64,000 bases of DNA from an uncultured archaeon (GCA_964486045.1 CAZALK010000006.1:64001-128000), one strand, 5' to 3'; shown: positions 27,806 through 36,418, counted from the stretch's first letter. Program-made: numbers and translations. The notes: a model not told the origin generated them from the sequence alone.

Positions 27806-28338
27806 AATAAGATCCCTCTCTTTGAGGAGGAGTAGCTTTATCCATGGAAAAAGCAGAAATCTTCATTAACCTCCTCCCCTAGTCTCTTATCTCTGGGGAA
27901 ATTAGCCAACATTTTGTTTATCCACAAGAGGAACATTGGGAAATGATGCTAAATTTATTTATTGTAATGAAGCATTCAATGAATTATTGAAAAATTAAAT
28001 TAGTTATTGTTTTATTGAAAAGTCATAAATAAATTCTTCAAATCTATTATCATTAAAAAATATAACAAACAGAAATTTCTAATTCTTAATTTAGGTTTAT
28101 GCTAATTTTCTATAAATTTTTCATAATTAAATGACAATGCTTTAATCTAGAGGATATTTCAATAAACCCTAAAATTCTATGGGAATGAAAGAGGGGTAAA
28201 AAAGATATGTATGCTATTCTGCATATAATAACCAATCAAATTCTTTTTTGACGTTGAAAATATAATTTTCAAAAAATTATGATATTAAGATATAATAATG
28301 TTTAAATAATTATGTTTTTATATTTAATTCAAGCAAAA

Positions 28339-29429: not shown

Positions 29430-32400
29430 TTGAAATATTTAATTCTTTCTTATTTTGATGACTGGGAAGGCCCAAAAATATTTTTGCAACACCCAAAAAC
29501 AAAATCTCATGAAGAATTAGAACAGATTCCTCAATTAATGAATCTTTATGATAAAGGATTTTTTACTCATTCGATAAAAGGATTTACTAGCGCAAACTTA
29601 ATTTTTGATGTAGCGAGTAATTATATCAGAGGTGGATCTGAATTACTCCAAATAACAATTCTTTGTAAAGATGAATACTTGAATACAGATCTTTCAAAAA
29701 CACTTCTTGAATGGTTTGTGCATCAAGTAAATGAAATTTCTGAGGTATTTAAAGCGTTTTATCCTGAATTAGAGGAAAAACCAGCGAGTAACAATAAATA
29801 TGTTATTCCCCTTTCCACTGATTCTTCAACAGGAAAAAGGGGTAGTAGAGGTAAATTAGCACAAGTTCGAGATTTATTTTTTAATGTTTTCAATAATTTA
29901 CCTAAAGAAAGCATTACAATAAGGCGTTCAGACTCAAAAATTTTTATATTTGGATTATCTAAAGTAGGAAAATCAACGATTATAAAGGTTATTCAAGGTT
30001 ACCAAAATACAAGTACAATTCCCACTTTCAATGTGGATATTTCACAAATACTATTTAATAATATTTCTTTAATAACGTATGATGCTCCTGGGCAGACAAA
30101 ATTCCAAAATTTTTGGAAACCTTATCTAAAAAATTTGGATGGATTAGTTTTTATACTTGATATTACAGACTATTCTACTTTTCCTTAAGCTCGTGAAATT
30201 TTACACAGTATTGCTAATAAACCAAACCTTAGAAACATACCTTTATTGATACTTTATAATAAGATCGATTTAATGACCCCTGACGTAGAGAAAATCAATG
30301 ATGCACTTAGTATTGATAAATTTGGGAAAAGAGTCTGTAGACATTTTTTAACTAGTGGTTTAACAAATGAAGGAATAGTAAACGCATTCACTTGGTTGAC
30401 TAATAATATTTTGAGTCGAAGAATTTTACCTGGAGAGGAAGAGTTAGGAATAATTTTTTCACGTTGGGATGAAATTATCGGTCTTAAAATTCTTACAACA
30501 TATCCGGAAAATGTTGTTGATGATCCTGAAAGTGTCGCTCTAAAGTGTTCTTCAATATCACAATTTGTTTATGAAGGGGAACAAGTAAAAAAATCTGCGT
30601 TTATCTTGCCCTTACCACAATTGAGGGCAAAGGCAGCAATTTATTATGATTATATTCAAGATAGTTCAATCCGAGGTAATCGGTTACCTCTCTCTATAAT
30701 CTTAATTTATCAAGAAAAGATTCCAAATTCAATTATAGATAAATTTAATAGTTTAGTACTAGATAAATTTGAGCTTATTAAAAAATGTTATATGAACGAA
30801 GAGAACTTCGATAAAAATTTTTATGAGCTCCATGGAACAATTCGGGAGAGATTAAAATCTTTTAAATCTACTGTAAAAGAATTGAGAGTAGCAGAATTAC
30901 AATATAAAGCTTTGTTTAAAGCCGCTCGAGATGCAATCTTAATTATTGAGCAGAAATCAGAAATAATTATTGATGCAAATGAGCAAGCTGAGAACTTCTT
31001 TTTATTACCTTTGGAAAAAATCATTGGTTCTCACATGACTAACCTAAAATTTGATATTGAGTATGAATTGTTTAGAGAAAAAATGGCAAATCAAGTTAGT
31101 GTAGAAGGTACTCCCCCATTTGGAGCCATAATTTTGAATTCTGAGGAATCTTTCATTCCTGTGGAAATAAATGCAAGTAGAATTCAAATGGGGGGTAGAA
31201 ATTACATACAATTTATAATTCGAGATGTTACTGAGCGTAGTAAAGCCGAACAAAGATTAAGAGAATCTGAGGAAAATTATCGACTCATTTCAGAAAATGC
31301 GAATGATCTAATTATCGTTATTAATAATAAATTTGAAGGGGAGTACATAAATGAAGATGCATATCAGAATATAATGGGATATTCAAAGAAAGATGTTATA
31401 GGCAAGTCTGTTTTAGAATTTATTCATCCAGAAGATCTTCAGAAATGCACTCAAGCAATAATGAAGGGTTTCAAAAAGGGTGGAGGACGTGTTGATGCCA
31501 GATTTAGACATAATGATGGTCATTATGTATGGTTAGATATAAAAGGAAGACCTTATTACCCTAAGGAAGGTTTAGGAAAAGCGCTTTTAATTGCTCGAGA
31601 TATTTCTGAGCGAAAAAAGGCCGAATCTACTATTAAAAAGAATTTAAAGTTTGAAAAAACTGTTGGGGTCATTTCCTCTCGGTTTATTGATGCAAACGAT
31701 TTTGATAAAGCAATTAATGATACTTTACGAGATATTGGGATACTTTGTGATGCGAATCGAGCTTTTCTTTTTAGTTATAATAAAAATGATAAAACTATTG
31801 ACAACACTCATATGTGGATTGAAGAGGGAATAAAAGCCAAAATTCAGGATTTACAAAAAATCCCTAAAATGATACTTCTCTACTGGGAGCAATTAATAAT
31901 TGAAAATGGGTATGTGCATATTACGGATGTTTCAAATCTCAAATCAAGAAATTATTTTCTTAAAGAACACTTTGAAAGCCTAAAGATTACATCTTTTTTA
32001 ATTCTTCCTGTTTATGTCAGAGATAGACTCGATATAATGATGGGTTTTGACAATTTCTCAAAACCAAAAGATTTAAAAACTGATGATATTACATTATTGC
32101 GTGTAACATCAAATATCATTGGTAGTGCTATGGAACGAAGACTTTCTGAGGATATAATAAAAGAATCTGAGGAAAAATATCGATTAATAACTGAAAATGC
32201 AAATGATATGATTGGTATATTGAACGATAGGTTTGAGTGGGAATACATTAATGAAGAAACGTTTCTAAAAGTTTTAGGATACTCAAATGAAGATCTGATT
32301 GGAAAGTCATCACTACTTTTTGTTCATCCAGAAGACATACGAAGAACAGCGAGAAAGTTAAGAATAGGTTTTAAAACAGGAATAGGGAGTGATGAGCTAA

Positions 32401-34373
32401 GATTTCGAGGGAGAAATGGAGATTACGTATGGTTAGAGACAAAAGGAAGCACATTTACTAATAGAAACGGAGAGTTAAAAGCTCTTCTCATTTCAAGGGA
32501 TATTTCTGAACGTAAAAAGGCAGAGGAACGGATACGAAATTCAGAACGCAAATATCGCCATTTATACGAAAACTCTCCTAATGCAATTGTCATTAGTAAT
32601 AAGGATGGAATCATCTTGGAAAGCAATTCGATAACAACAGAGATTTTTGGATATGGAAAATCGGAATTTATAGGTAAAAATTATGCTGATTTAAGAATAT
32701 TTACCAAAGAGCAAATAATTTTACTTCAAACTAGATTTGAAGATATGATGAAGGGAAAGAAGGTACCACCCCAAGAATTTCAAATACAAAAAGAAAATGG
32801 AAAGTCAGCTTGGGTCTATTATCAAAGCTCACTTATAAAATTGCATGACGATTTTATGGTCGAAGCCTTAATTCAAGATATTTCCCAACAAAAAATAGCT
32901 GAAAAGTTATTAAGAGAATCAGAAGAAAAATATCGAGTAATCTCTGAAACGGCATATGACTTGATTGGCATCTTAAATAGCAAATTTAAGTATGAATATA
33001 TTAACGAACAAGCTTTCAAACAAATTCTCGGTTATTTTAGCAAAGATCTTATTGGAAAGTCAGCTCTGAAATTTACTCATCCCGACGACATGATAGAAAC
33101 AGCTCAAGCATTAAGGGATGGATTTAAAGAGGGAAGTGGGGGTAAAGAACTAAGATTTAAACATGCTGATGGACACTGGGTTTGGATTGAAGCAAAAGGT
33201 AAGACATATCATGACATCAATGGAGATTTAAAAGCAATTGTTATTTCAAGAGATATATCCGAAAGGAAAAAAGCTGAGCAAAAATTGCAAGCCACTGAAA
33301 GGAATCTTAGAGAAAGAGTTAAAGAACTCAGTGTTTTATTTGGGATTTCTCAAATCTTAGAAAAAGGAAATATTTCAATAGAAGAAATACTATTTGGAGT
33401 TCTTCACTTAATTCCTTCAGCTTGGCAATATCCAGAGGTGACTTGTGCAAGAATCGCATTAGATAATAAATCATATAAAACAGAAAATTTTAGAGAAACT
33501 GAATGGAAATTAATTACTCAAGTTGATATTAATGAGAAACCAATGAAAATTGAAGTTTTCTACCTTGAAGATAATCCATTTCTTGAAGAAGAAAAAGCGC
33601 TAATAAGAGAGATTGGTAATCGTTTAAAAATAACTATTGAAAAAATAGATACAGAGCAAAATTTAAGAGCGTCTGAGATAAAATATAGGAAATTGGTTAA
33701 CAGCATTTCAGATCTTTTGTTAGAGGTAGATTTAAAAGGAAAAATCACCTACGCTAGTCCTCAAATTTATGATATGTTTGGATTTACTCCTTCTGAAATT
33801 CAAAATACACGAATCCATAAGTTTATTCATCCCGATGATATGCAATACGTAATGGAAACAATGAAAAAGGGATTTGAAACGAAAAAAGAAACAACACTCG
33901 AATATCGAACTCGACATAAAGACGGTCACTATATTCATGCTTCAGTAAAAGGAATAGTATTGAGTAATGGAAGATTCTATGGTGTTGTTCGAGATATAAC
34001 TAGCATAAAAATAGCCGAACATAAGTTTAGAAGCCTGCTTGACACTTCTCCAGTTGGAATTATAGAGCTTAATTTGATAACAATGAAAATAGATTATATT
34101 AATCCGAAATTAAGGGAAGCTATTGGCTTAGATTTAGTTGAATTAAATCGAAAACACGTCTACGTAGATAATTTTGACTTATCTAACAATACAGCCATAG
34201 AATTTAAGATTTATAACAAGGGTGGATTAATTTGGTTAACTGGAAAAAAGATACTGCAACATAACAAACCAGATGAGCTAAAAAGTGCGATAATATGGAT
34301 AACTGAGATTTCTGACAATAAGAAATTAGAATCGACATACGTAGCAGCTGCTAGCAGTATACGGTTGAGATGA
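29430..34373 (+). CDS. Longin/uDENN-like - Arf-like GTPase - longin/uDENN-like - multi-PAS/GAF fusion, interrupted by one in-frame TAA at 30186-30188
   Basis: ORFs 29430-30188 and 30246-34373 are in the same frame; the gap reads AREILHSIANKPNLRNIPL. G1 GLSKVGKST, G2 PT and G3 DAPGQ lie before the stop, G4 NKID and G5 TSG after. Seven PAS repeats and two GAF-like segments follow; no HisKA/HATPase. Confidence 0.85.
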
Positions 34374-34435: not shown

Positions 34436-34768
34436 TTAAATTACAGCTACTAAATCTTGTGATTTTACTTGCTTATTTACATATTTGTGAAATTGAAGTA
34501 CATTAAATTCGTATGGGTGTGTTTTTTTTAAGGTTTTAAAAAAATCACATTTTACACAATCTTTAGCTTTGTCAATAAATGATCCATTCACAGTACCAGT
34601 ACAAATAGTACCAGTAATATATGCACAAGCTCTACCTCCATTGTTTCCTTCGCAAAAACCATCTGCAGAAACATATGTTGCAGCGGGACATACACCCAAA
34701 GATTTAACATTCACTCCACCAACTTCTCTTCCACATTTTTTAAATTCCCAACAATTTAATTTATCCAT
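34436..34768 (-). CDS. Small Cys-rich 'two-CW'-type protein
   Basis: NCWEFKKCGRE..CPAA..GGRAC..GTIC..CVKCDFF; GGAAGGT upstream. Confidence 0.8.
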   Translation of the reverse strand: MDKLNCWEFKKCGREVGGVNVKSLGVCPAATYVSADGFCEGNNGGRACAYITGTICTGTVNGSFIDKAKDCVKCDFFKTLKKTHPYEFNVLQFHKYVNKQVKSQDLVAVI

Positions 34769-35059
34769 TTTTTTTACCTTCCATTTTTTATTATGATATT
34801 ATTATGATATTATATTATTATGTTATCTTAATTATTTAATATATAATAATTTTGATATTTAAATGTTTGCATATTTAATGAAAAATTTAGAAGAAATTCA
34901 TATTAACTGTTTTAAAACGCTCTTTTAGGAGAATCTAAAATAAATATAAATTAATCAGTAGTACAATAGAGACCTTTTTTTGAGGATTAATAAATTAAAA
35001 ACGAAATTTTAAAAAAAAATGAAAACCATATGTGGATATAGAAGTTAAAAGGTGTAATA

Positions 35060-36418
35060 ATGGAAATAAATAACACAACAAAAATAATAACAATAATGGA
35101 CAATTACCCTCAAGTCTACGATGAGATTTATAAACTTAATCCTAAAGTAAAGCGTTTTAAAAACCCAATAGCTCGTAAAACAATGGGTAAGAAGGCAACT
35201 ATAGAAATGGTATCAAAGATGTTGAAAATCCCAATTGAAAAACTAATTTCGACAATTACAGAAGCAATTGAATTGAGTAGTGGAGAACTGACAGATGAGG
35301 AACGTAAAGATATTTTAAAAAATATCCTATTAAAAATACATGAGGGAGGGGAATTTGGTGAGCTTAAAGAAATGTTCAGAAAAGCTGTGGGAGATATAAC
35401 TGCTCCTGAAATTGGCCAATTAGAGCAGGAATTAATTAGCGAGGGTACTTTAGAAATAAAAGATATCGCTAAATTAAGTGACTTACATGTAGCACTATTT
35501 AAAGAATCCTTGGATGAAAAACCAGATTATGATACCATACCTGGCCATCCCGTTCACACTTATCTTCAAGAGAACCTCGAAATTGCCAATTTGATTAGAC
35601 GAATCAGGACTGCGCAGGGGGATGAAAAATTAAGCTTATTCAAACAACTGGCACAAGTAGAACTTCATTATACCCGAAAAGAAAACCAAGTGTTTCCGAT
35701 ACTAGAAAAAATTGGGATATCGGGACCTCCTCAAGTGATGTGGGCGGTTCACGACAAGATCAGAACGGGTTTAAAAACTGAAAATATAGAAGACATTGAA
35801 CCGGTATTAGTACAAGTCGAAGATATGATTTATAAAGAAGAACATATCCTAATTCCAATGATAATGGAAGGATTCGAGGAGTCTCATTGGGTGAGTGTTC
35901 GTGATGGTGAAGAAGAGATTGGGTTTGCATTCGGTGTTACCCCCGGAACCAAGTGGAAACCAATTTCTGCAAGTGATGTTCACATACCCGTAGAAGCTAA
36001 ATCTTTAGGAGATAAGATTAACTTAGATGTTGGAAGCTTATCCCAGAAACAAATTAATATTATGCTTAAAACACTTCCTGTAGATATTACATTTGTCGAC
36101 GATAAAGACGAAGTTGCCTATTATTCTGACACTGAAGATAGGATCTTCCCTCGAAGTAAAGGTATAATTGGAAGAAAAGTTCAAAACTGCCATCCACCTG
36201 ATAGTGTCCATGTTGTAGAAGATATTTTAAATAAATTCAAATCTGGTGAAAAAGACGTGGCAGAGTTTTGGATACAAATGGAAGATAATTTCATAATGAT
36301 TCGTTATTTTGCTATGCGAGATGAAGAAGGGAAATATGTTGGCACGCTAGAAGTTTCTCAAGAACTTTCACGCTTAAGAACACTAGAAGGGGAGCGTCGA
36401 TTGGTTCAATGGTCCTAA
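35060..36418 (+). CDS. DUF438 protein (DUF1858 + hemerythrin-like + C-terminal PAS)
   Basis: GHPVHTY..EN, HYTRKEN, VMWAVHD, KEEHIL, LPVDITFVD, VQNCHPP. Confidence 0.9.
   Translation: MEINNTTKIITIMDNYPQVYDEIYKLNPKVKRFKNPIARKTMGKKATIEMVSKMLKIPIEKLISTITEAIELSSGELTDEERKDILKNILLKIHEGGEFGELKEMFRKAVGDITAPEIGQLEQELISEGTLEIKDIAKLSDLHVALFKESLDEKPDYDTIPGHPVHTYLQENLEIANLIRRIRTAQGDEKLSLFKQLAQVELHYTRKENQVFPILEKIGISGPPQVMWAVHDKIRTGLKTENIEDIEPVLVQVEDMIYKEEHILIPMIMEGFEESHWVSVRDGEEEIGFAFGVTPGTKWKPISASDVHIPVEAKSLGDKINLDVGSLSQKQINIMLKTLPVDITFVDDKDEVAYYSDTEDRIFPRSKGIIGRKVQNCHPPDSVHVVEDILNKFKSGEKDVAEFWIQMEDNFIMIRYFAMRDEEGKYVGTLEVSQELSRLRTLEGERRLVQWS

Follow-up and report, generated by a model that had tools for sequence, protein, structure and literature searches.

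In eukaryotes, small GTPases of the Arf and Rag types are the clients of GTPase-activating protein (GAP) complexes that contain longin domains, namely C9orf72-SMCR8 (Arf), FLCN-FNIP2 or Lst7-Lst4 (RagC/Gtr2), and the NPRL2-NPRL3 part of GATOR1 (RagA/Gtr1). Small G domains are also coupled, in cis or within an operon, to kinases and to roadblock-type regulators in ROCO proteins (Roc-COR-kinase, for example LRRK2), in MglA/MglB and in the actinobacterial conservon. GAP-type longins harbor a GP motif in the beta1-beta2 hairpin, which becomes WD-x3-GP in C9orf72 (PMC12290439). In Asgard archaea, longin-GTPase-roadblock architectures are known (PMC10933270), Arfs can carry longin N-termini (PMC11914678), and Rag-like GTPase fusions include L-G-R of MK-D1 (PMC10933270), LokiRagM (8ZLA/9M28), LokiRagO (8YL2) and the Loki Roadblock-Longin protein (8YQG). 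The text of Liu et al. (bioRxiv 10.1101/2020.10.19.343400, Fig. 5c) further mentions an NPRL2-like longin fused to two-component domains in Asgard archaea. Nevertheless, the pairing of regulators with GTPases in these organisms is largely obscure: operons rarely reveal it (PMC10933270), and which GTPases are the partners of GP-motif longins has been posed as a question (PMC12290439). Here, we describe a giant gene that ties one Arf-like G domain to two predicted longins in a single chain. It lies at positions 29,430 to 34,373 of a 64,000-nucleotide stretch of DNA from an uncultured archaeon (GCA_964486045.1, CAZALK010000006.1:64001-128000), called hereafter the window. The scaffold was obtained from a marine-sediment metagenome, and the host is a Lokiarchaeia-type Asgard archaeon.

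The 1647-residue product, whose frame is interrupted in the window by a single TAA, is made up of a longin, an Arf-like GTPase, a second longin, a PAS-PAS-GAF unit, three PAS domains, a domain without family, and two further PAS domains (Table 1). The GTPase is the only enzymatic output domain detected in it. Its clade always adjoins two genes encoding an ArsR-type regulator and a Rag-like GTPase devoid of roadblock (RagL), which are fused in one relative; this association is new. From these sequence features we propose, with somewhat less than even confidence, that PAS/GAF sensing would control a longin-GTPase switch acting via the Rag-like GTPase and ArsR.

With the eukaryotic longin GAPs, the giant protein shares the fold of longin B, two longins per unit, a GP or WD-x3-G hairpin, a conserved Arg in the neighboring loop and clients of the Arf/Rag type. 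In contrast, it carries both longins and the Arf-like client in one chain, has no DENN domain, is fused to PAS/GAF domains and matches neither Folliculin nor NPR2, and its GAP role is a prediction. The Asgard Rag-like fusions also join a small GTPase to a longin or roadblock in a single chain, and 8YQG is the top match of longin B. However, they are 300-400 aa long, mostly Rag-like and without sensor array, whereas the G domain studied here is Arf-like and stands between two longins of a 1647-aa protein. The fusion of Liu et al. likewise joins a eukaryote-type longin to prokaryotic signaling domains but, in a comparison made with the text alone, that text mentions no embedded Arf-like GTPase, no kinase-less form and no ArsR-RagL neighbors. 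Contrary to ROCO, MglA/MglB and conservon systems, the protein has no COR domain, its G domain is of the Arf rather than the Roc or MglA type, and its accessory domains are longins, not roadblocks; its family has a histidine kinase, which this protein lacks. A literature search retrieved no text describing a longin-Arf-longin head on a PAS sensor, a kinase-less form of it, or its link to an ArsR-RagL pair. The preliminary description had taken Asgard small GTPases to be usually stand-alone; in MK-D1, 26 out of 74 are associated with a roadblock or a longin (PMC10933270).

The longin and GTPase head and the PAS/GAF array

The first 480 residues of the protein, referred to as the head, contain the G domain flanked by domains A and B. 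The G domain is Arf-like by three approaches. In Pfam searches, that of P0003, an intact relative, scores 115.5 bits with Arf vs. 62 with Ras and 32 with Gtr1_RagA. In Foldseek comparisons, the model of the G domain is superimposed on Arf6, Arl1 and Arf1 with a TM-score of 0.88 and also matches the Asgard protein GerdArfR1 (8oum). Finally, its profile compared to PDB sequences ranks Arf1 first (E 3.6e-38). In the window itself, the TAA at codon 253 splits the Arf domain (PF00025) into an upstream half covering profile positions 11-95 (E 3.4e-17) and a downstream half covering positions 101-174 (E 7.9e-07), the two halves scoring 62.9 and 29.2 bits for a cut-off of 22.3. The motifs G1 (GLSKVGKST), G3 (DAPGQ), G4 (NKID) and G5 (TSG) and the switch-I threonine T199 are all present, and all of them are invariant or nearly so among 54 homologues, which together with the Pfam match confirms the complete small-GTPase fold previously recognized. 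The N-terminal amphipathic helix typical of Arfs is not present: the G domain sits inside the chain, behind longin A and a disordered linker, and has therefore no free N-terminus. A 19-residue insert in this linker is specific to the subclade of the window protein (P0001-P0004, P0001 being its intact form with Gln at codon 253).

Domains A and B, which had been left unassigned in an otherwise correctly ordered domain layout, are best modeled as longins of the FLCN/NPRL2 structural type. When folded alone with AlphaFold2 (AF2), longin B gives a model of good quality (predicted local distance difference test score, pLDDT, 84.9; predicted template modeling score, pTM, 0.81) with the topology bb-a-bbb-aa. 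Its top Foldseek matches are NPRL2/Npr2 of GATOR1, the Loki longin 8YQG, FLCN and Lst4 (E 1e-4). VIA-align gives a Z-score of 12.9 for 8YQG, 10-11 for Lst4, the FLCN-FNIP2 complexes and GATOR1, and 9.5 for C9orf72-SMCR8. The fold assignment of longin A is based on the secondary structure pattern in an AF2 model of the whole head, obtained with a 54-sequence alignment as input (pLDDT 77.6, pTM 0.42), in which the domains are good and their packing is poor; Foldseek matches of this whole-head model are dominated by Arf structures. Profiles of the two longins aligned with hhalign are colinear, with a weak score (E 0.0085).

Both longins carry features of GAP-type longins. In longin A, a GP motif (G14-P15) is located in the beta1-beta2 hairpin, and P15 is invariant in the 54 sequences. 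In longin B, the motif is WD-x3-G (W346, D347, G351), with W346 and G351 invariant in the same set and a Pro after G351 in some members only; its spacing is that of W33-D34...G38-P39 in C9orf72 (PMC12290439). The beta4-beta5 loop of longin B contains an R415-G pair conserved in at least 90% of the sequences, and R415 may be a counterpart of the arginine finger of FLCN, NPRL2 or SMCR8. The corresponding loop of longin A has an arginine, Arg67 (YIRGG), conserved in some classes of the family only. Given the order of strands in longins, the hairpin between beta1 and beta2 and the loop between beta4 and beta5 should lie at the same edge of the sheet.

Behind the head, Pfam recognizes six solid PAS units and a weak last one (PAS_8, E 2.9e-05); the PAS_3, PAS_9 and PAS profiles match four to six stretches, with E values from 1e-59 to 1e-70. 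The GAF domain of the window protein is below the cut-off (E 0.0045) but that of its relative P0004 is above it (24.6 bits). Residues 1294-1408, the part first called GAF-like, correspond to no Pfam family and may form a GAF-like sensor domain. These ~115 residues (33309-33653) come after a coiled-coil linker and share 51% identity with residues 1021-1179 of P0005, a giant kinase. In agreement with the preliminary description, searches with Pfam, NCBIfam and a hidden Markov model (HMM) of the family kinase core detected no HisKA, HATPase_c, GGDEF, receiver or HTH domain in the giant protein. The kinase HMM reaches only the linker preceding the H-box (residues 865-918), with 18 bits vs. 270-430 in the relatives; hence, the PAS array replaces the kinase directly behind the GAF domain. 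The protein is assumed to be soluble and cytoplasmic.

Homologues, the histidine kinase and selection

A search with the head retrieved 88 proteins including P0012, the window's own downstream open reading frame (ORF), leaving 87 homologues. Nearly all of them cover the head, with 40-85% identity, and their labels are Asgard or generic archaeal where a source is named. A survey of 301 genomes sampled across the phylum located the full head in 30 out of 68 genomes of the window's GTDB family and in a single genome from a different family; the 28 other families sampled had none. The window's own genome has a single full-head copy and no second paralogue. The architecture, which had not been recognized as a described one, is less new than it first seemed: 87 Asgard homologues have the same head, the family occurs widely within a single Lokiarchaeia-type family, and the class of fusion is in print in outline. 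Database names of the kinase-bearing members are limited to "PAS domain S-box protein," "ADP-ribosylation factor-like protein" and "putative histidine kinase."

These kinase-bearing members fall into classes of ~950 aa, 1123 aa and giants of 2300-2470 aa. They have the same PAS-PAS-GAF unit as the window protein and a head 40-50% identical to its residues 1-480. They differ from it by their end, made up of an H-box and an HATPase_c domain (intact in the giants, degenerate in the 950-aa and 1123-aa classes), where the window protein has five PAS domains and the domain without family. HATPase_c is matched in 77 of 83 homologue C-termini, and the family kinase-core HMM scores 270-430 bits at the extreme C-terminus of every complete member except P0029 and the four proteins P0001-P0004, which represent four populations and form the kinase-less subclade. 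The possibility raised at first, that all homologues end in a histidine kinase merely truncated here, is therefore nearly correct as to the homologues and wrong as to truncation. Indeed, intact proteins of the same architecture do exist in Asgard archaea: P0002, P0003 and P0004 come from other metagenomes and align with the window protein to its last residue, and a convergent gene lies within 62-65 nt of the end of the giant gene at two loci, so that the kinase-less C-terminus is not a truncation. A kinase lost to a contig end or hidden downstream was considered and ruled out by the intact relatives, the downstream gene and the kinase HMM. In BLAST alignments, colinearity of the window protein extends to residue 738 for P0007 and to residue 918 for P0041.

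Alignment of the C-termini shows that the H-box His and the N, DNGxGI and GxGxG boxes are kept in the giant class and in P0013 and P0019; the kinase motifs are present in P0005, P0009, P0013 and P0019. In the 950-aa and 1123-aa classes, Asn or Gln replaces the H-box His and the N, G1 and G2 boxes are lost, while the head and the PAS-PAS-GAF unit stay conserved. On these alignments, the kinase appears to be dispensable in the family. The head with PAS-PAS-GAF is its invariant core, which favors the GTPase module as the working part of these proteins, but not its acting alone. In the 1123-aa class, one of those with a degenerate kinase, G3 reads DIPGK instead of DAPGQ, the catalytic Gln being changed to Lys in the column of residue 222.

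In a quick maximum likelihood tree of the head, rooted at midpoint, the four kinase-less proteins form one clade with a long stem, grouped with the giant kinases P0005, P0006 and P0009 and with P0029, and nested among kinase-bearing lineages. With the caution called for by this long branch, the tree suggests that kinase loss in the subclade is derived. The ratio of non-synonymous to synonymous substitution rates (dN/dS), calculated against three relatives, is 0.12-0.35 in every region of the giant gene; the kinase-less form is therefore a maintained protein under purifying selection. With respect to L013 and L014, two of the related loci, dS in the head (29430-30869) is 0.25-0.31, about a third of the value in the PAS array (30882-34370; 0.87-0.99). 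Misaligned PAS repeats, repeat shuffling or recombination are possible causes of this gap.

The ArsR and Rag-like GTPase neighbors and a proposed output route

The ArsR-RagL pair is located directly upstream of the giant gene in the window and at L012, L013, L014 and L015, although the outer flanks differ. It is directly downstream of the giant-kinase sisters P0005 and P0009 (L016 and L019). At L020, beside the kinase-less P0029, the pair is fused into a 369-aa protein, P0092, composed of two ArsR winged helix-turn-helix (wHTH) repeats and a Rag-like GTPase, 43% identical to the Rag-like GTPase and 34-37% to the ArsR of the window, where by contrast the two are separate genes, RagL starting 29 nt after the ArsR stop. 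The adjacency is thus found at eight loci in three arrangements, one of them a fusion, and no published description of an ArsR-Rag-like GTPase fusion was found in the literature search. The window's own genome contains a single further ArsR-RagL cassette, located on contig C5 (131956-136552, minus strand). It is followed by an 853-aa kinase-sized ORF, then by a 313-aa receiver-longin protein (WDDITGP, ERERFG) matching the longin-B model (E 5e-6), a model that matches about 5 ORFs at E <1e-3 in the 5.2-Mb genome. The second cassette is therefore accompanied by the same longin type.

Several other features of these loci can be noted. P0005 and P0009 are divergent from a Che cluster encoding a methyl-accepting chemotaxis protein (MCP), an uncharacterized protein, CheW, CheY and CheA (L016:1-4660 and L019:1-3627), and a TFIIB gene comes next after the ArsR-RagL pair. 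P0092 (L020:8189-9298, minus strand) is convergent on P0029 and next to two PAS-MCP genes.

An 11-mer, TTATGATATTA, occurs in three exact copies in the window, while ~0.3 would be expected by chance from base composition. It is present at the ArsR promoter in L012, L013, L014 and L015, and both window positions are kept in L012 and L015. This makes it a candidate ArsR operator bracketing the cluster.

These observations lead us to propose the following route. The PAS/GAF array would bind small ligands or sense redox state and relay the signal to the head. The two longins would pair as a pseudo-dimeric platform bearing the GP and WD-x3-G hairpins and a conserved Arg, as in C9orf72-SMCR8, FLCN-FNIP and GATOR1. 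This platform would determine whether the embedded Arf-like domain, the free Rag-like GTPase, or both, are in the GTP or the GDP state. The Rag-like GTPase would in turn gate the ArsR-type repressor encoded just before it, which would probably bind TTATGATATTA at its own promoter and at that of a neighboring 110-aa gene. The chain would then run from the signal to the longin/GTPase switch, the Rag-like GTPase, ArsR and finally transcription. It is doubtful, though conceivable, that the clade goes as far as being a compact archaeal counterpart of the eukaryotic longin-GAP and Rag/Arf nutrient-sensing switches (GATOR1, FLCN, C9orf72-SMCR8), in which a built-in longin pair, under the control of ligand-sensing PAS/GAF domains, acts both on the Arf-like domain of the same chain and on a separate Rag-like GTPase that directly gates ArsR.

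Such a counterpart would have several consequences. Natural fusions would name the client GTPases of GP-motif Asgard longins, and the kinase-less form would be an example of a GTPase branch that suffices by itself as an output. This form is useful because no phosphotransfer can confound the result. The set of parts is small, testable and presumably soluble: the head (residues 1-480), the 173-aa Rag-like GTPase, the 119-aa ArsR and the 11-nt candidate operator. It bears on whether longin-based GTPase control predates eukaryotes, and on how such control was wired to prokaryotic sensing and transcription.

Some results weigh against the route as drawn. The inter-domain arrangement of the head is not confidently predicted (pTM 0.42), so that contact of a longin with the nucleotide pocket is only a proposal. 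A complex prediction combining longin A, longin B, the G domain of P0003 and GTP gave an ipSAE of 0.01, which is evidence neither way. Neither longin is placed in Pfam Folliculin (PF11704) or NPR2 by sequence models: in a search extended to E 10, the best longin match was Folliculin, for longin A only (E 0.18, 12 bits vs. a cut-off of 23.3), the rest being noise, and longin profile searches against PDB sequences gave no useful match. In VIA-align, plain roadblock folds (Z ~9) come near GAP-type longins (Z ~10-11), and conservation of Arg67 in longin A does not extend to the largest class. The direction of signaling may also differ, since longins can be guanine nucleotide exchange factors, GAPs or mere platforms. 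As for the candidate operator, both this element and the genome around it are AT-rich, two of the three copies form a tandem repeat, and it was not confidently traced at the giant-kinase or P0029 loci. Finally, ArsR-RagL neighbors are missing at one 950-aa locus and one 1123-aa locus, and the link is thus confined to one clade.

This last point also bears on the best-surviving alternative, close to the preliminary description, which saw a one-component system with the GTPase as sole output. In such a self-contained system, the PAS/GAF array would control the embedded Arf-like GTPase, whose GTP form would recruit effectors, the neighboring genes being uninvolved. Since the 950-aa and 1123-aa classes have no ArsR-RagL pair, the head must be able to work without it. 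Moreover, the protein has no other output domain, and the head and PAS-PAS-GAF unit are invariant in a family in which the kinase has degenerated or been lost several times. However, this explanation overlooks the conserved pair: it leaves aside the adjacency at eight loci in three arrangements, including the fusion, as well as the second ArsR-RagL cassette of the same genome, also found with a B-type longin protein. We regard it as a minority possibility, and the ArsR-Rag-like GTPase pair as a more likely output route than the GTPase alone.

Less probable still is that the head is an input. In sensor kinases, N-terminal domains are inputs, and the GTPase head could be a regulatory switch gating the C-terminal kinase, as Roc-COR does in ROCO proteins; the kinase-less protein would then be a PAS-mediated partner or decoy modulating other PAS kinases or chemoreceptors. 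The kinase core is indeed C-terminal in all complete members outside the subclade and P0029, with intact motifs in the giants; the giant-kinase sisters lie beside the Che cluster and P0029 beside PAS-MCP genes; and the window's genome has no second full-head paralogue. Nonetheless, the two largest classes combine a catalytically degenerate kinase with a highly conserved head, which is difficult to square with a head serving only as kinase input, and purifying selection acts on the head even in the subclade devoid of any kinase. This makes the head-as-input explanation unlikely compared to the proposed route via the Rag-like GTPase and ArsR.

The in-frame TAA and the coordinates of the features

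The giant frame runs from a TTG codon, preceded a few bases upstream by a Shine-Dalgarno-like GAGG, to the stop codon at 34371-34373. The resulting N-terminus is in register with the initiator Met of the homologues, and the single frame of about 1647 codons with one TAA, as first noticed, is confirmed. L012 is a scaffold of a sister sample belonging to the same study; it is 99.5% identical to the window over 12 kb, its giant gene is split only by a 10-N scaffolding gap, and its codon 253 is CAA (Gln). The 83%-identical relative P0003 also has Gln at this position. The TAA is a single C-to-T change (CAA to TAA); a GAA ancestor was ruled out by the CAA of the sister strain. TAA is moreover the commonest stop in the window, where it ends 23 of the 47 long ORFs, and outside the giant gene the window has a dense and normal coding content, with the other genes intact. 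Together with the CAA of the sister strain, this excludes recoding and leaves two explanations for the TAA, a nonsense allele of very recent origin or a consensus error. The full-length protein is probably not made in the window strain.

One may then ask whether the gene is a decaying pseudogene, in which a sensor kinase lost its kinase first and is now being lost as a whole. In addition to the TAA inside the G domain, the 252-aa truncated ORF is recorded in the NCBI, ENA and Logan assemblies, on three contigs, and this is the only full-head copy in the genome. Yet the lesion is the only one in 4.9 kb and is absent from the sister strain; apart from this nonsense change, the two strains differ by 10 synonymous and 8 non-synonymous changes in the giant gene; and three more distant populations keep intact genes with the low dN/dS given above. 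The subclade is therefore functional and at most the window allele is dead, which renders decay of the gene quite improbable. As for an assembly chimera near 30870 or a TAA read as an amino acid, for which the open frame on either side of the TAA is the only argument, the likelihood is negligible: the GTPase-PAS junction is genuine, being found in 87 homologues and in the independent sister-sample scaffold, which ruled out the chimera, and recoding is excluded by the stop usage and the normally coding surroundings.

Table 1. Coordinates of the features in the window (positions counted from its first nucleotide; residues are those of the giant protein).
Feature	Positions	Strand	Evidence and remarks
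Giant gene, whole	29430..34373	+	1647 codons including one internal TAA; end-to-end alignment with intact P0002-P0004
Longin A (predicted), residues 1-114	29430..29771	+	AF2 secondary structure bb-a-bbb-aa, pLDDT ~80
Linker with 19-residue insert	29772..29924	+	pLDDT <50 at residues 115-132 and 160-166; alignment gap in other classes
Arf-family G domain, residues 166-332	29925..30425	+	Pfam Arf, Foldseek, profile vs. PDB; G1-G5 and catalytic Gln222 intact
In-frame TAA, codon 253	30186..30188	+	Between G3 and G4; CAA (Gln) in sister strain
Longin B (predicted), residues 336-460, and next helix	30435..30869	+	AF2, Foldseek, VIA-align
PAS1 (485-605), PAS2 (613-732), GAF (739-905)	30882..32144	+	Pfam; with the head, core common to the whole family
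Subclade-specific tail: PAS3-5 (913-1283), alpha/beta domain without family (1294-1408), PAS6 (1415-1529), degenerate PAS7 (1531-1640)	32166..34349	+	Pfam, kinase HMM
TTATGATATTA element (candidate operator)	28277..28287	+	25 nt upstream of ArsR start, in a ~40-nt block conserved in four loci
ArsR-type wHTH regulator, 119 aa	28312..28671	+	Pfam HTH_5, E 3.4e-08; adjoins giant gene in all eight related loci
Roadblock-less Rag/Arf-like GTPase (RagL), 173 aa	28701..29222	+	Gtr1_RagA, E 3e-20; Arf, E 1.9e-19
110-aa Cys-rich protein	34436..34768	-	No Pfam family; convergent on giant gene; conserved in L012 and L015
Tandem pair of TTATGATATTA	34791..34812	+	Upstream of the convergent 110-aa gene; same position in L012 and L015

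The gene of the 110-aa protein is divergent from another gene (35060-36418, plus strand) encoding a protein with DUF1858, DUF438, hemerythrin and PAS_10 domains. Elsewhere in the same genome, a longin of the A type is found at the N-terminus of six more ORFs (169-553 aa) with other architectures (C12:141149-142810, C1:690466-691683, C5:59571-60080, C16:33841-34593, C1:168593-169702 and C17:37984-39021), and small GTPases are encoded at about 35 loci.

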